Positions 29,395 to 34,350 of a stretch of DNA of 64,000 bases are shown piece by piece. The stretch's first letter is position 1. Every line of letters begins with the position of its first letter. The notes beneath the pieces are model-generated. The model ran no database searches, was not told where the DNA came from, and was given only the letters and a program-made list of their open reading frames with translations. The translations under genes were made by a program, and so were the position numbers. The stretch comes from an uncultured Bifidobacteriaceae bacterium (GTDB lineage: Bacteria; Verrucomicrobiota; Verrucomicrobiia; Limisphaerales; UBA11358): positions 11,121-75,120 of the forward strand of contig CAZHXG010000004.1 in the NCBI GenBank assembly GCA_964536285.1. The letters run 5' to 3'.

Positions 29395-29610
29395 TCAGAC
29401 GCGCTTGGTTTTCACGAGCAGCAACACGATTCCACCGACGAGCGCAAGCGCTCCGACGGCGGGCGGGATAAAATGGTTATCGGTGGTCTGAATGTGCATC
29501 CCAAGGAACTCGATGGGTTTTCCCGGAGTCGTGAAGCTCAAGCCCGAGTAGGCGAGCACCACGATGCCCAAAGCGACCAGAATGACTGCAACGACGGTTT
29601 TTGTGTTCAT
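29395..29610 (-). CDS. Small two-TM membrane protein
   Basis: 71 aa with hydrophobic N- and C-terminal helices. Last gene of the BON operon. Confidence 0.55.
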   Translation of the reverse strand: MNTKTVVAVILVALGIVVLAYSGLSFTTPGKPIEFLGMHIQTTDNHFIPPAVGALALVGGIVLLLVKTKRV

Positions 29611-29647
29611 ATTGAATCTATGGTTAATTTTCCTGGCTGACAGTTTT

Positions 29648-29800
29648 TCAAAGCACGGATTTCCGACCGGAGATGATTCTGACTAAAATCATCACGACAG
29701 CGATGACGAGAAGGACATGAATAAAGCCGCCCATGGTGGTGCCGGTCACCAGACCGAGCAGCCAGAGAATGAGCAGGACCATTGCGATTGTGTATAACAT
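29648..29800 (-). CDS. lmo0937-family small membrane protein (50 aa), not in the ORF track
   Basis: My hand translation gives MLYTIAMVLLILWLLGLVTGTTMGGFIHVLLVIAVVMILVRIISGRKSVL. This matches the WLLG...GGFIH.LLVIA pattern of the lmo0937 family. Confidence 0.75.
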   Translation of the reverse strand: MLYTIAMVLLILWLLGLVTGTTMGGFIHVLLVIAVVMILVRIISGRKSVL

Positions 29801-29869
29801 ATATTCCTTGGTTTGTTTTGCTCACTGCTGGCTGGCGCATTTCCGCGCCAGCCGGCAATAACTTATTGT

Positions 29870-30646
29870 TTAGTTCGCAGCCACAGGCACGGCGATGGTC
29901 ATGTTGTTGATCACGCTGGTCACGCCGTTGATGTCGGTCGCGAGCTTGGTGACGAGGCTTTTTTCAGCGTCGTTTTTGGCAATGCCGCTCAAGGTGACGA
30001 CGCCGTCCGTCGTTGAAACCGTGGTGTGCAAGGCGCTGGTCGAACGATGCGACAGCAACGACGACTTGACTTCAGCCGTGATGGAGGCGTCGTCAATTTT
30101 GTCGCCAATGGTTGCGTCTGGAGTTGCCGGAGTATTGGCAATCGTCATGTCGTTCTTGACCTCGTTGACGTTGTCAATGTCCCTGGCGTATTCGGTGGTG
30201 AGTTCCTTCTGCGCCATGCTGCTTGCTTCACCCTGCAAGGTGACGATGCCGTCTTTCACATACACGGTGGTTCCGGTGGCGCTCACGTTACGATGGAACA
30301 ACAGCGCGGTTTGCACTTTCATTTTGATCCACATGTCGGAATGTTCAGCCGGCTGTTTGCCGTTGATCAGTAGTTCATTGTCCACGGTTACGACGCCGGG
30401 CAGACTCGCCACGGTGTTTTCGGCCATGGATCTGTGCGACGCATCGGCGACCGTGCCGGTCAAAGTGACGACGCCATTTTTGGAATCAACCTTGATTGAA
30501 TCGTCCTTGAGGTAGTTTTTGAATGTATAGGAGTGTGCGGCGGACGATTCGATGCGGCTGTCCGTGCTGGCAGCGCGCACTGGCGAACTGGTGATTAATA
30601 TTGTGCTCACAACCGCTGCGAGCGTTAAGGGGAACATTGATTTCAT
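29870..30646 (-). CDS. Periplasmic BON-domain protein (OsmY-like, three BON domains)
   Basis: Signal peptide MKSMFPLTLAAVVSTILITSSPVRA, then three repeats of the type GVVTLTG.A....K..A......GV..V.N. Confidence 0.85.
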   Translation of the reverse strand: MKSMFPLTLAAVVSTILITSSPVRAASTDSRIESSAAHSYTFKNYLKDDSIKVDSKNGVVTLTGTVADASHRSMAENTVASLPGVVTVDNELLINGKQPAEHSDMWIKMKVQTALLFHRNVSATGTTVYVKDGIVTLQGEASSMAQKELTTEYARDIDNVNEVKNDMTIANTPATPDATIGDKIDDASITAEVKSSLLSHRSTSALHTTVSTTDGVVTLSGIAKNDAEKSLVTKLATDINGVTSVINNMTIAVPVAAN

Positions 30647-30717
30647 TTTATTTCTTTCGTTTGTTATGTTGTTGGTTTTTGACACTTGAAGCACGTTAAG
30701 TGATGCGCCAACTCCTG

Positions 30718-30738
30718 GCTATGGGGTGTAACCCTACC
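30718..30738 (-). promoter_or_regulatory. Conserved stress box (copy facing the BON operon)
   Basis: The minus strand reads GGTAGGGTTACACCCCATAGC. It lies 80 nt upstream of the BON start. Confidence 0.6.
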
Positions 30739-30800
30739 GTGAATTGCTGGAGGCGTTCTCGCGGTAAACTGTTTCAGCCCGTCTGGAGACAATCGGCGAG

Positions 30801-30820
30801 TCGGGTTTTACCCCATATAC
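30801..30820 (+). promoter_or_regulatory. Degenerate stress box (copy facing the two-component operon)
   Basis: TCGGGTTTTACCCCATATAC keeps the GGGT-N3-ACCCCAT core. It lies 70 nt upstream of the ATG at 30881. Confidence 0.4.
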
Positions 30821-30880: not shown

Positions 30881-31579
30881 ATGAAACGAAAGTTGATCAA
30901 GTTGTCACAACGATACGTGACAGCGTTGCGAAAACACCTGAAGCCGGGATTACGCCGGAGCTTGCAGCCGGCGCTGGGACTGGGACGCCAGGCTGTCGTG
31001 CTCGGGCTCGAGACGCTGGAACTGGCCCGAATTCACGAGAAGGCGATCACCACACTGGAATTATCCAAAAGTAAAAACGGCTTTACCAGGCAGGCGGAGA
31101 TTTTTTTTACCGAGGCCATCACCCCGATCGTGGAGACGCATCGCGCCGCGCGGCAGAGCAAGATTCAACTGGACCGGCTGAACGAGACGCTGAACCGGCG
31201 AACGGTGGAACTGGCCGCCACGAACCGTCAGTTGCGACACGGCATCGTCCGCCGCAAGTGCGTGGAAGCCGCCCTCAAGAAAAGCGGCGAACACTACACC
31301 AGATTGTTGAAGGATTCCCTGCAACTGCAGGAAGGCTTGCGGCAACTGACGCATCAGGTGCTGGCGGCGCAGGAGGATGAACGCAAGAAGATCAGCGGCG
31401 AACTTCAGGACGAAATCGCCCAGACGTTGCTGGGCATCAATGTCCGCCTGCTCTCGTTGAAACAGGAGGCACGGAACAACACCAAGGGTCTGAAGAATGA
31501 AATCGCCAGCACACAGCGGTTGGTGGTAAAATCGGCCAAGTCCGTGCGGCGGGTCGCCCGTGAATTCGGCAGCTCATGA
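30881..31579 (+). CDS. Truncated histidine-kinase paralog: RsbU_N-like helical domain, coiled coil and first DHp helix, with phospho-acceptor His replaced by Gln and no ATPase domain
   Basis: 232 aa, colinear with residues 1-230 of the next gene. The H-box reads ISGELQDEIAQTL versus ISRELHDVIAQTL in the neighbour. The stop overlaps the next start (ATGA). Confidence 0.8.
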   Translation: MKRKLIKLSQRYVTALRKHLKPGLRRSLQPALGLGRQAVVLGLETLELARIHEKAITTLELSKSKNGFTRQAEIFFTEAITPIVETHRAARQSKIQLDRLNETLNRRTVELAATNRQLRHGIVRRKCVEAALKKSGEHYTRLLKDSLQLQEGLRQLTHQVLAAQEDERKKISGELQDEIAQTLLGINVRLLSLKQEARNNTKGLKNEIASTQRLVVKSAKSVRRVAREFGSS

Positions 31580-32742
31580 AAGCCAAATTTTTTAGACACT
31601 ATCAGTCGGCATTGCTGAAGTATCTCAAGCAATGCCCCGGCGGACGCCTGCAATCGGCGCACGGCATGGGACGGCAGGCGCTGGCCGCCGGCCTGCAGAC
31701 GCTCGACGTGGCCAAGCTCCACGAGCAGATATTGATCACCCAGGTGTTGCCGGGCCTCCCGGCCGGCAAACGCGCCACGCTCATCAAGCAGGCGGGTGCT
31801 TTCTTCACCGAGGCGATCACCCCGATCGAGAAAATTCATCGCGGCGCGCACGAGGCCGCTGTCCACCTGAACCAGATCGTCGAGATGTTGAGCCAGCGCA
31901 CAGTGGATCTGGCCGCCTCGAACCTGGAATTGGAACAGGAAATCACCCAGCGCAAGGCGGTGGAGGTGGCGCTCAAAAAAAGCGAGCACCATTACAGCCA
32001 GTTGCTGGAACAATCGGATCACCTGCAGGAGCAGTTGCGCCAATTGTCCCGCCAGATCCTCTCGACACAGGAGGAGGAGCGCCGGGAGATCAGCCGCGAA
32101 CTGCATGATGTCATCGCCCAGACTTTGACGGGCATCAACGTCCGGCTCGCGGCCTTGAAAAAGGAGGCCGCGCTCAACACCAAGGGTCTCGACCGCAACA
32201 TCGCCCGCACGCAACGGCTGGTGGAAAAATCGGTGAACATCGTGCATCAGTTCGCCCGCGAATTGCGCCCGGCAGTGCTGGACGATCTCGGCCTGATCCC
32301 CGCGCTGCATGCGTTCGTCAAAAATTTTTCCAAGCGGACGGGCGTCCACGTTCACATGAAGGTCTTTGCGGGGGTTGAACAACTGGACAACAGCAAACGC
32401 ACGGTGCTCTATCGCGTCGCGCAGGAGGCGCTGACCAATGTCGCACGCCATGCAAAAGCCGGACGGGTGGAAGTGAACATTCAGAAGCTTCACGGTGCCG
32501 CCCGCATGGAAGTCAAAGACGACGGCAAATCCTTTCAAGTGGAGCGCGTCATCCATTCCAAGGAAAATAAACGATTGGGACTGCTCGGCATGAGGGAGCG
32601 CGTCGAAATGGTCGGCGGCACTTTTTGCGTCGAGTCCGCGCCCGGCCGCGGCACCACCATCCGGGTGGAGATTCCATTCAAACACGTCCCGAAGGACGCG
32701 CTGAAAAAATCCGGTAAAAAAACCACACTAGAATGTCCATGA
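31576..32742 (+). CDS. Cytoplasmic sensor histidine kinase (RsbU_N-like N-terminus, HisKA_3, HATPase_c)
   Basis: H-box ELHDVIAQTLTGI, N-box QEALTNVARHA, G-boxes DDGKSF and GLLGMRERVEMVGG. No TM segment. Confidence 0.9.
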   Translation: MKAKFFRHYQSALLKYLKQCPGGRLQSAHGMGRQALAAGLQTLDVAKLHEQILITQVLPGLPAGKRATLIKQAGAFFTEAITPIEKIHRGAHEAAVHLNQIVEMLSQRTVDLAASNLELEQEITQRKAVEVALKKSEHHYSQLLEQSDHLQEQLRQLSRQILSTQEEERREISRELHDVIAQTLTGINVRLAALKKEAALNTKGLDRNIARTQRLVEKSVNIVHQFARELRPAVLDDLGLIPALHAFVKNFSKRTGVHVHMKVFAGVEQLDNSKRTVLYRVAQEALTNVARHAKAGRVEVNIQKLHGAARMEVKDDGKSFQVERVIHSKENKRLGLLGMRERVEMVGGTFCVESAPGRGTTIRVEIPFKHVPKDALKKSGKKTTLECP

Positions 32743-33416
32743 AACGAATCACTGTCCTGTTGGCCGAAGACCACACCATCGTGCGCGAGGGGTTCCGCAA
32801 GATGCTCGAACTTGAAGACGACTTTGAAGTCGTCGGCGAAGCGCCGGACGGGCGGCAGGCCGTCACGCTGGCCAAAAAACTCCGTCCCGACGTGATGTTG
32901 ATGGACATCGCGATGCCCCTGCTCAACGGCCTGGAAGCCACCCGCCAGATTCTCAAGGCCGTCCCCGGCACCAAAATAGTCATCCTCTCCGCGCACAATG
33001 ACGATGCGTATGTCAAAAATGCGAGCGAGTCCGGCGCGATGGGATTTCTGCTCAAACAAAACTCCTCCCACGTGGTGTGCGAGGCCATCCGGCAGGTGCA
33101 AAAGGGGAAAGCGTTTTACGGCCCGACGGTCGCCAGGCGTCTCGAACGCATCAATTCCAAATCGTCCAACGGCTCGAAACCAAACGGCAAGAAAATTTCC
33201 AAACTGACTTCGCGCGAGATGGAAGTGCTCCAGCTCATCGCCGAGGGCAAGGCCAACAAGGAGACCGCGTCGGAACTGGGCATCGGCATCAAGACCGTCG
33301 AGAAGCATCGCGAGCATCTCATGGAGAAGCTCGACATCCACGACACCGCCGGACTCACCCGCTACGCCATCAGCGCGGGCATCATCGAGAGCAGCGTCCA
33401 GTTGACCATCGTTTAG
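32733..33416 (+). CDS. NarL/LuxR-family response regulator (REC plus GerE-type HTH)
   Basis: ITVLLAEDHTIVREG...DVMLMDIAMP, and a C-terminal LTSREMEVLQLIAEGKANKETASELGIGIKTVEKHREHLM. Confidence 0.93.
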   Translation: MSMKRITVLLAEDHTIVREGFRKMLELEDDFEVVGEAPDGRQAVTLAKKLRPDVMLMDIAMPLLNGLEATRQILKAVPGTKIVILSAHNDDAYVKNASESGAMGFLLKQNSSHVVCEAIRQVQKGKAFYGPTVARRLERINSKSSNGSKPNGKKISKLTSREMEVLQLIAEGKANKETASELGIGIKTVEKHREHLMEKLDIHDTAGLTRYAISAGIIESSVQLTIV

Positions 33417-33444
33417 CAGCGCCCCGCAGTGTTGTTTCGCGCCG

Positions 33445-33750
33445 ATGTTCTTGGTCCGCCGCATGATCGTTATGAATGAAAATGGCCTCGCTTTCTGGAT
33501 GACCCTGACCGGCACCATTTGCTGGGCTGTTTGCTTTTGGTGGATGCACCGGCTGTCAACCAAGCAGAACGCGCTTTTGGACCAGCTTCGCGAACAGGGC
33601 AAACGCATCGAAAAACTTTCCAAGATCGAACACGACCTCATCAAGGAAGTGCATCCGCAGGTCGGCGAGATCAAGGAAGGGATGGACGAGATGATCGCGG
33701 CGGTGAAGGAAAATTCCAATCCCCCGGCATCCAAAAAGAAGGGGCATTAG
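33445..33750 (+). CDS. Small membrane-anchored coiled-coil protein, hypothetical
   Basis: One hydrophobic helix (AFWMTLTGTICWAVCFWWM) followed by a charged helical tail. The start codon is uncertain. Confidence 0.45.
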   Translation: MFLVRRMIVMNENGLAFWMTLTGTICWAVCFWWMHRLSTKQNALLDQLREQGKRIEKLSKIEHDLIKEVHPQVGEIKEGMDEMIAAVKENSNPPASKKKGH

Positions 33751-34028
33751 TTCCGCCAATCGCGCCGCAGGCGAGACTGCTCCGTCCTGAATTTTGCGGT
33801 CCCGCCCTGAAAATTTTTATTGACCCCGAATACTCCGATATGATTTAACAATTTCAGGTTCGGGCGGGTCGGATTATGGACTGGGTCAGGGTCACAAGTG
33901 TGATTTGGGAAAGGGCACGGGGACGCAAAGGTCTTCGCGTTTTCCCGTCCCGTGATACTTTCGCGCGGTGTCGCGCAGCGACCCGCCGGTCTGCCCCGGC
34001 CATTTTTAGCCGAGTCCCCACCCCCGGG

Positions 34029-34350
34029 CGGCGCGTCACCATCATCAGGCGGCGCGCCGTAATCATTTTTACACGCGGAAACTTCATCCGCACGCGTGTC
34101 GCAACCATTTTTACGCGCGTAAACTTCGTCCGCACGCGCGTGGCGATGATTCTTACGCAAGGAATAATCATTCCCACGCGAGTAAACTTCATTCCCACGT
34201 GCGTGGAAATCATTCCTACGCACGTAAACTTCATCGGTGCGCGCGTAAAAATCATTCCTACGCACGTAAACTTCATCGGTGCGCGCGTGGAAATCATTTT
34301 TACTCACGTAAAAACCGTTCCCACGCACGTAAAAATCATTTTTACGCACC
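34029..34350. repeat. Tandem array of about 15 units of a 21-bp repeat with a 42-bp higher-order structure
   Basis: Units start at 34050, 34071, 34092 and so on to 34344, exactly 21 bp apart. Two alternating types: ACGCACGTAAACTTCATCGGT and GCGCGCGTGGAAATCATTCCT. The stretch CCTACGCACGTAAACTTCATCGGTGCGCGCGT is repeated exactly at a 42-bp offset. Confidence 0.9.

Follow-up and report, generated by a model that had tools for sequence, protein, structure and literature searches.

The short gene S, which opens a three-gene signalling operon in a 64,000-nucleotide stretch of DNA from an uncultured bacterium of the Verrucomicrobiota (assembly GCA_964536285.1, contig CAZHXG010000004.1; the whole stretch is referred to below as the window), is a real and ancient gene under purifying selection, and its product is structurally complete to the end of the DHp domain. 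S is followed by the gene for a histidine kinase, K, of which it is a paralogue, and by a response regulator gene. This type of operon occurs in soil and freshwater Verrucomicrobiota, and S is most likely a negative component of a stress-response signalling operon. Our preferred reading, held tentatively and with a probability of roughly 45%, is that S is a functional third component of the operon, a kinase-dead subunit in the phosphatase state that acts on the regulator. The three genes lie on the same strand with head-to-tail overlaps, and the features of S discussed below are listed after them:

30881..31579, + strand: short gene S, 232 residues, an ATPase-less, His-less paralogue of K, composed of an N-terminal four-helix domain, a coiled coil and a complete DHp
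31576..31579, + strand: ATGA overlap of the S stop codon (TGA) and the K start codon (ATG)
31576..32742, + strand: kinase K, 388 residues, a cytoplasmic DesK-like HisKA_3 histidine kinase with N-domain and coiled coil as in S, His177, DxxxQ and HATPase_c
32733..33416, + strand: response regulator, 227 residues, with a receiver and a GerE/LuxR-type DNA-binding domain, NarL family (Pfam, NCBIfam)
30881..31120, + strand: N-terminal helical input domain of S, residues 1–80, common to K (K residues 1–80, 31576–31815)
31124..31372, + strand: coiled coil or signalling helix of S, residues ~82–164, running on into DHp helix 1
31373..31477, + strand: DHp helix 1 of S, residues ~165–199, with the acceptor-site motif ELQDEIAQTLLGINVRLL and the HisKA_3 match
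31406..31408, + strand: acceptor-position codon of S, CAG, Gln176
31409..31423, + strand: DxxxQ transmitter-phosphatase motif, kept in S, Asp177 to Gln181
31478..31564, + strand: NTKG turn (residues 200–203) and DHp helix 2 (residues 204–228) of S

A BLASTP comparison of S with K gave 119 identities over 229 positions (52%, E = 4e-62) in a colinear alignment, with two small gaps, of S residues 7–229 to K residues 4–230. This bears out the original prediction, made from the sequence of the window, that the 232-residue open reading frame is colinear with the N-terminal ~230 residues of the kinase, and the overlapping stop and start codons that it described are present at 31576–31579. The ATGA overlap suggests that translation of S and K is coupled. 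At the DNA level, the two genes are 70% identical across 484 nt, and the identity between the proteins is higher in the DHp than the overall 52%. By Pfam, S and K both contain HisKA_3, and K alone contains HATPase_c. The acceptor-site motif reads ELQDEIAQ in S and ELHDVIAQ in K; Gln176 of S aligns to His177 of K (codon CAT, nt 32104–32106) and to His188 of DesK, so that the His-to-Gln exchange claimed for this site is indeed there. The neighbouring motif residues (QDEIAQ) are retained, the Asp one residue and the Gln five residues after the acceptor position. Because both the ATPase domain and the acceptor histidine are missing, S can neither autophosphorylate nor donate phosphate.

Where S ends relative to the DHp fold was read from several lines of evidence. 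The HisKA_3 profile (PF07730) matches S with 35.2 bits (cut-off 24) over residues 167–229, corresponding to profile positions 1–63 of 68. K aligns with DesK across both DHp helices, and a Foldseek search with the AlphaFold2 model of K ranks DesK structures first. In this model, which has a mean confidence score (pLDDT) of 87.5, the N-domain consists of four short helices (residues 2–18, 26–37, 42–57 and 63–80) with pLDDT above 90, followed by a single helix from 82 to 200 that contains His177, the NTKG turn (201–204), helix 2 (205–229), an LRPA linker and the ATPase domain (240–370). The alignment of S with K is gapless up to K residue 230, past helix 2; S thus includes the turn and helix 2 and ends four residues later, at the linker between the DHp and the ATPase domain. 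As modelled, S is the kinase minus its ATPase domain, with a complete two-helix DHp. The original prediction had S ending exactly before the second DHp helix and called it a DHp-half protein; the profile match, the DesK alignment and the K model instead place its end after helix 2, with both helices present. Residues N200, T201 and G203 of the turn are invariant among close S orthologues. When S was modelled alone with AlphaFold2 from a 20-sequence alignment, it gave one straight helix (67–231) without a hairpin and with low confidence in the N-domain, and the anatomy of the hairpin was taken from the K model, not from this one. A profile of S orthologues had no match at E ≤ 1 among the PDB sequences.

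The input domain of both proteins weakly resembles RsbU_N (PF08673), the N-terminal domain of the phosphatase RsbU. This model scores 23.6 bits on S and 25.1 bits on K, both below the gathering cut-off of 25.5, and many S orthologues carry a precomputed PF08673 match. Near-invariant residues of this domain across the family are Y12, L16, G35, H52 and F75/F76, the last pair within the FFTEAITPI segment.

In species-representative genomes, 276 related stretches were confirmed by a scan; the locus counts given here use the best 80 of these (64–86% identity), all of them from Verrucomicrobiota-type metagenome-assembled genomes. Orthologues of S with the same length are present in at least 80 species-level Verrucomicrobiota genomes. 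Most orthologous loci have the order S, K, regulator, and the 4-nt ATGA overlap between S and K recurs in 61 of 73 junctions. The best 120 protein clusters are 80–94% identical to S, and 85 of them are exactly 232 residues long. Pairwise Nei–Gojobori estimates from 66 species gave ratios of nonsynonymous to synonymous substitution rates (dN/dS) of 0.24–0.28 for S, 0.23–0.29 for the part of K homologous to S and 0.25–0.33 for the remainder of K, showing that S is as strongly constrained as K. In a neighbour-joining tree of the N-terminal regions of 81 S and 67 K proteins, S and K are each monophyletic, which argues for a single old duplication.

The family extends well beyond these orthologues. 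At E < 1e-30, S is matched by 321 clusters at 50% identity, and among the top 150 cluster representatives 137 have the short architecture, approximately 100 of which end no more than 6 residues from the end of helix 2. The kinase-type sequences make up one clade among the representatives; these were assigned to the kinase type by signature residues, since fusions of S to CheB would otherwise pass as kinases by length. Proteins only 43–44% identical to the S of the window are still encoded by the first gene of an operon with the order S, K, regulator, and have Val, Tyr or Arg as the acceptor residue. Over such distances S diverges faster than K (in one and the same genome pair, 43% identity for S versus 61% for K).

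We considered the possibility that S is a recent pseudogene or duplication debris whose frame has stayed open by chance. The truncation and the missing catalytic histidine are the sole points in its favour. Same-length orthologues in at least 80 species, a dN/dS of ≈0.25 as in the kinase, the ancient monophyletic S clade, the 61 conserved ATGA junctions and the 321 clusters make this explanation practically untenable, and the earlier view of S as a maintained gene rather than debris is upheld.

The pattern of conservation within S is uneven. At the acceptor position, the 81 S orthologues have Gln in 69 cases (codon CAG in 64, CAA in 5), His in 11 and Arg in 1, versus His in all 67 of the kinases; a Gln and a His codon differ by one third-position change. 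Seven of the 11 His-bearing S proteins belong to a basal clade and the other four are scattered within the Gln clade. Since the basal, His-keeping proteins are equally truncated, loss of the ATPase domain preceded loss of the histidine. Across the 137 short cluster representatives the position is occupied by Gln (78), His (23), Arg (19), Asn (7), Tyr (4) and Ser (2), with Cys, Lys, Val and Glu once each. The acceptor position was apparently relaxed after truncation, several times. The original prediction had described S as frozen as a His-to-Gln variant; Gln is correct for the S of the window, while the truncation is older than the exchange and the position is a relaxed one.

The residues around it are held much more tightly. 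Gln at +5 is found in 134 of the 137 short representatives (98%) and Asp or Asn at +1 in 136. The three most conserved residues of S are Q181, H52 and F75, of which the last two are in the input domain, and the best conserved segment is DEIAQTLLGINVRLL (xDEIAQTLLGINVRLL) in DHp helix 1, within which the acceptor position itself is only 56% conserved. By alignment with DesK, S and K have the same residue at three positions that contact the regulator DesR, namely +5 (Q), +12 (V) and +18 (K). Two further positions are class-specific: at +8 and +15, K has Thr and Ala, respectively, and S has Leu at both. Family-wide, Leu, Val or Ile occupies +8 in 96% of S representatives.

These positions can be placed in a known structural framework. 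DxxxQ is the transmitter-phosphatase motif of HisKA_3 kinases (PMC3510030), among them NarX and DesK. In the phosphatase complex of DesK with DesR, Gln193 of DesK touches the phospho-Asp mimic, where it is poised to orient the water molecule for hydrolysis; Asp189 forms a pair with a regulator Arg, and His188 is buried more than 18 Å away (PMC5231405). The His-less variant DesKC-H188V binds DesR and is locked into the phosphatase state (PMC5231405). According to PMC7005713, which cites Liu et al. 2017, a construct of the kinase HK853 without its ATPase domain acts as a phosphatase in vitro. A protein in which the acceptor is dispensable, and the Gln and the docking helix are kept, is what would be expected if S still engages the active site of a receiver without transferring phosphate. 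The conservation of S thereby points at the response regulator, and not at the kinase alone. In effect, the family presents a natural mutagenesis experiment in which the acceptor histidine proved dispensable, and the phosphatase Gln and the regulator-docking helix did not.

In the mechanism that we propose, S goes back to a single ancient event in which the 5' 60% of the K gene was duplicated in tandem, and would act as a DHp fixed in the phosphatase state. The lower, conserved half of its helix 1 would be the docking site for the receiver domain of the neighbouring NarL-type regulator, and there Asp177 and Gln181 of the DxxxQ motif might hydrolyse, or at least hold, the phosphorylated regulator. 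The active form could be an S:S dimer or the inactive half of an S:K heterodimer. Because the input domain is common to S and K and their genes overlap, a common signal may set K as the kinase arm and S as an "off" arm independent of the kinase, and the output would be general-stress-type genes behind a conserved palindromic box (described below). That S binds the regulator or K, and that it is a phosphatase, are predictions from sequence. A locus in which the regulator gene directly follows S, with no kinase gene between them (L074), counts in favour of a phosphatase-state subunit.

Several points weigh against this reading. K retains a DxxxQ motif of its own, which leaves no obvious need for a separate phosphatase subunit. 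The sole ATPase-less HisKA_3 protein to have been studied experimentally, a laboratory frameshift mutant of ChrS, behaved as phosphatase-defective in vivo and exerted its effect through heterodimers with its paralogue HrrS (PMC9491836). The ATPase domain of DesK, which S lacks, supplies part of the interface with DesR (PMC5231405). The S-specific leucines at +8 and +15 face the regulator, and S may bind it differently or bind something else. In one subclade, S has a CheB-type methylesterase rather than a kinase as its neighbour or fusion partner, showing that the S module can be used elsewhere. Finally, the conservation of helix 1 could in part reflect packing in the four-helix bundle rather than docking.

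A more specific version of the phosphatase-state reading, which we consider doubtful though conceivable, is that throughout a bacterial lineage kinase and phosphatase activities have been split onto two paralogues acting on the same regulator through a shared input domain, with K as the full kinase and S as a dedicated DxxxQ phosphatase, forming a hard-wired push-pull pair in control of a general-stress regulon. If this were correct, S would be the first natural DHp-only response-regulator phosphatase.

The original prediction proposed that S might poison or modulate K in a heterodimer, or compete for a ligand of the shared sensor domain; such competition is conceivable as well. As a dominant-negative decoy, S would use the input domain, coiled coil and DHp to form a dimer with K that has one ATPase domain and one histidine, and would titrate the output of the kinase; if autophosphorylation occurs in trans, the ATPase domain of K would face Gln176 of S, leaving the histidine of K without an ATPase partner and the heterodimer dead. 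Such pairing is made plausible by the 52% identity of the two proteins, higher still in the DHp, and by the gene overlap, which favours co-synthesis, and there are precedents in the heterodimers of the paralogous HisKA_3 proteins ChrS(CA-fs) and HrrS and in the pairing of kinases through the DHp region in FasB/FasC and RetS/GacS. Repeated loss of the acceptor histidine would also suit a partner that must stay unphosphorylated. However, a structural role alone does not call for a solvent-exposed Gln at +5 that is 98% conserved beside a drifting acceptor, and the histidine is kept in 17% of the family clusters and in the basal clade. Moreover, S is found alone (L040), beside a regulator without K (L074) or with CheB domains. 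In the coiled coil, conserved charge differences give S a net charge of +4 around its residues 109–129, versus −0.7 to −2.7 for K; the heptad register shifts, the g–e' products are alike for S:S, S:K and K:K pairs, and charge pairing gave no clear preference for S:K over S:S. We regard a pure decoy, the main rival of our reading, as unlikely. A positive accessory role is distinctly unlikely. Here S would be a co-sensor resembling RocA or ChrS_CA-fs, its input domain sensing the same or a second cue while it binds K, or scaffolds K and the regulator, and boosts or shapes phosphotransfer. The conserved residues of the input domain (H52, F75/F76, Y12 and G35) fit such a role, and there is precedent both in the pseudokinase RocA, which enhances CovS function without its own histidine, and in ATPase-less ChrS, which raised output via HrrS. 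The near-invariant phosphatase Gln is left unexplained by it, though, and the sequence does not tell activation from inhibition.

S might instead act mainly on some other partner, such as a different receiver or a CheB/CheR-type module, with its position in the operon being historical. This would account for the subclade in which S adjoins or is fused to CheB_methylest and is followed by CheB-CheR-PAS_10 proteins, for the leucines peculiar to S where helix 1 faces the regulator (+8 and +15), and for the lone copies of S (L040). Against it, the order S, K, regulator and the ATGA overlap hold down to 43% identity, and the CheB-linked forms are a minority clade, so that we consider this very unlikely. 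Other assignments were rejected outright. S is not one part of a split kinase, K being a complete kinase; nor is it a functional HisKA_3 kinase, having a DHp but neither the acceptor histidine nor HATPase_c; and a phosphotransferase of the Spo0B/ChpT type was rejected for the S of the window, which has Gln in place of His, as do 69 of the 81 orthologues (11 have His).

By descent and composition, S belongs with the kinase-derived pseudokinases DivL, RocA, PsmA and ChrS_CA-fs, proteins descended from histidine kinases that cannot autophosphorylate. That S modulates its kinase or pathway by protein contact, as these do, is suggested by the operon linkage and the shared dimerisation modules. S stands apart from them as an ancient, cytoplasmic, ATPase-less HisKA_3 paralogue that overlaps its sister kinase gene, is conserved at the level of a phylum and has an intact phosphatase motif.

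A parallel in composition is ChrS_CA-fs of Corynebacterium glutamicum (PMC9491836), a HisKA_3 protein that has lost its catalytic domain and kept the sensor and DHp. It coexists and heterodimerises with the intact paralogous kinase HrrS, and still affects signalling without needing its own histidine. Unlike S, it is a fresh, laboratory-selected frameshift product, is membrane-bound, and has its paralogue elsewhere with a regulator of its own. It also appears to be phosphatase-defective and raises output, whereas S is ancient and cytoplasmic, overlaps its sister kinase and has an invariant phosphatase Gln. DesK of Bacillus subtilis (PMC5231405; PDB 3EHH, 5IUJ and 7SSJ), the best match of K in both sequence and structure, shares the DHp subfamily and the DxxxQ motif with S. 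Its His-less, phosphatase-state, regulator-binding variant H188V was engineered, while S is His-less naturally; DesK itself is a single bifunctional membrane kinase with an ATPase domain, in contrast to S, which is a separate polypeptide with an RsbU_N-like input.

RocA of group A Streptococcus, which acts on CovS/CovR (PMC7028121), is also kinase-derived, its histidine and catalytic domain are dispensable, and it works through contact with the true sensor kinase. Unlike S, it sits in the membrane, retains a degenerate catalytic domain and has a DHp of another family; CovS is not its tandem paralogue, and its effect on CovR phosphorylation is positive. FasB/FasC (PMC12675982) resembles the S and K pair in having two tandem kinase-like genes upstream of one regulator, and the heterodimer divides the labour such that the catalytic domain of one partner is dispensable. 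There, however, the histidine of FasC is essential and carries the phosphate, while the S of the window has Gln, and only the basal, His-keeping S clade could work in this way. In RetS-GacS (PMC8498467), one protein of the kinase family blocks another at the DHp dimer interface; RetS, unlike S, is a full hybrid kinase, is encoded in another operon than GacS and is no close paralogue of it, and one of its mechanisms is to break up the GacS dimer.

Relatives of S carry generic database names ("histidine kinase", "hypothetical protein"). NCBIfam holds no model specific to S, the best matches being fragments of kinase models far below cut-off, and our literature searches found no description of an S-like family. 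Bacterial kinase-derived pseudokinases are known as a few individual cases (DivL, RocA, PsmA and the laboratory ChrS mutant), and S represents a large, ancient, natural family with hundreds of clusters at 50% identity, cut at the boundary between DHp and ATPase domain and overlapping its sister kinase. If the phosphatase-state reading is right, S would be a case of gene duplication partitioning kinase and phosphatase functions, would provide a minimal soluble DHp module in which transmitter phosphatase chemistry could be followed apart from the kinase reaction, and would lead to a candidate for the master regulator of stress genes in uncultured Verrucomicrobiota from soil.

Between S and the divergently transcribed BON-domain gene lie two copies of a palindromic box, and further copies are found elsewhere in the window:

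30720..30737 and 30800..30817: palindromic box copies TATGGGGTGTAACCCTAC and GTCGGGTTTTACCCCATA, respectively (span 30720..30817)
16955, 36621, 52476, 54190, 54809, 55723, 57354 and 61299: positions of the other boxes in the window
29395..30694, − strand: divergent unit encoding one protein with three BON domains, a DUF5670 small membrane protein and a second small membrane protein

The sequence GGGGT-N(2-5)-ACCCC occurs within 300 bp upstream of S, typically at ~115 bp, in 58 of 79 orthologous loci, at a density of 5.3 sites/kb compared to 0.30/kb elsewhere (≈17-fold). The looser pattern GGGT-N(3-6)-ACCC has 10 matches in the window, with 1.86 expected. Several of the window boxes are upstream of genes for PRC-barrel, DUF2934, Dps/ferritin-like, DUF4142, DUF5069 and BON proteins. 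The boxes are candidate operators of the operon that may be bound by the adjacent NarL-type regulator, and the genes linked to them look like a general-stress-type regulon. The BON and DUF5670 genes recur beside S in other genomes. A pattern scan for sigma-70 promoters and terminators gave counts near those in shuffled sequence.

The gene arrangement around S varies between genomes. In L074 (4001–5383) the regulator gene begins 6 nt after S and the locus has no kinase gene, and some genomes have an extra, lone S (L040). In another group, S is adjacent or fused to a CheB domain that takes the place of the ATPase domain (L042, 4001–5520; L056, 4001–5563; L069, 2323–3882; L088, 1594–3018; and P0181; also the downstream genes in L070 and L046). 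The CheB-linked S is followed by a CheB-CheR-PAS_10 protein of ~915 residues, with neither a kinase nor a regulator gene adjacent. Taken together, these variants indicate that S is a portable module for which a neighbouring kinase gene is not strictly required. About 20 of the 80 loci have an extra gene between K and the regulator (L003, 5857–6366; L025, 5864–6439; L044, 5886–6452) that encodes a signal-peptide protein of 170–190 residues with no Pfam match; this gene is absent from the window. The first eight residues of the extra protein in L003 (MKRITVLL) are those of the regulator, which suggests an insertion that duplicated the start of the regulator gene.

Two long open reading frames run antisense to the operon, one of 426 residues opposite S and K (31405–32685, − strand) and one of 399 residues opposite K and the regulator (32535–33734, − strand). 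They match related loci because the genes overlying them are conserved, and are most likely shadow reading frames of G+C-rich coding sequence. Downstream of the operon there is a tandem array (34027–34349) that has a period of 21 bp, with further scores at 42, 63 and 84 bp, and consists of ~15 copies with 65–84% matches; it contains long repetitive open reading frames on both strands.

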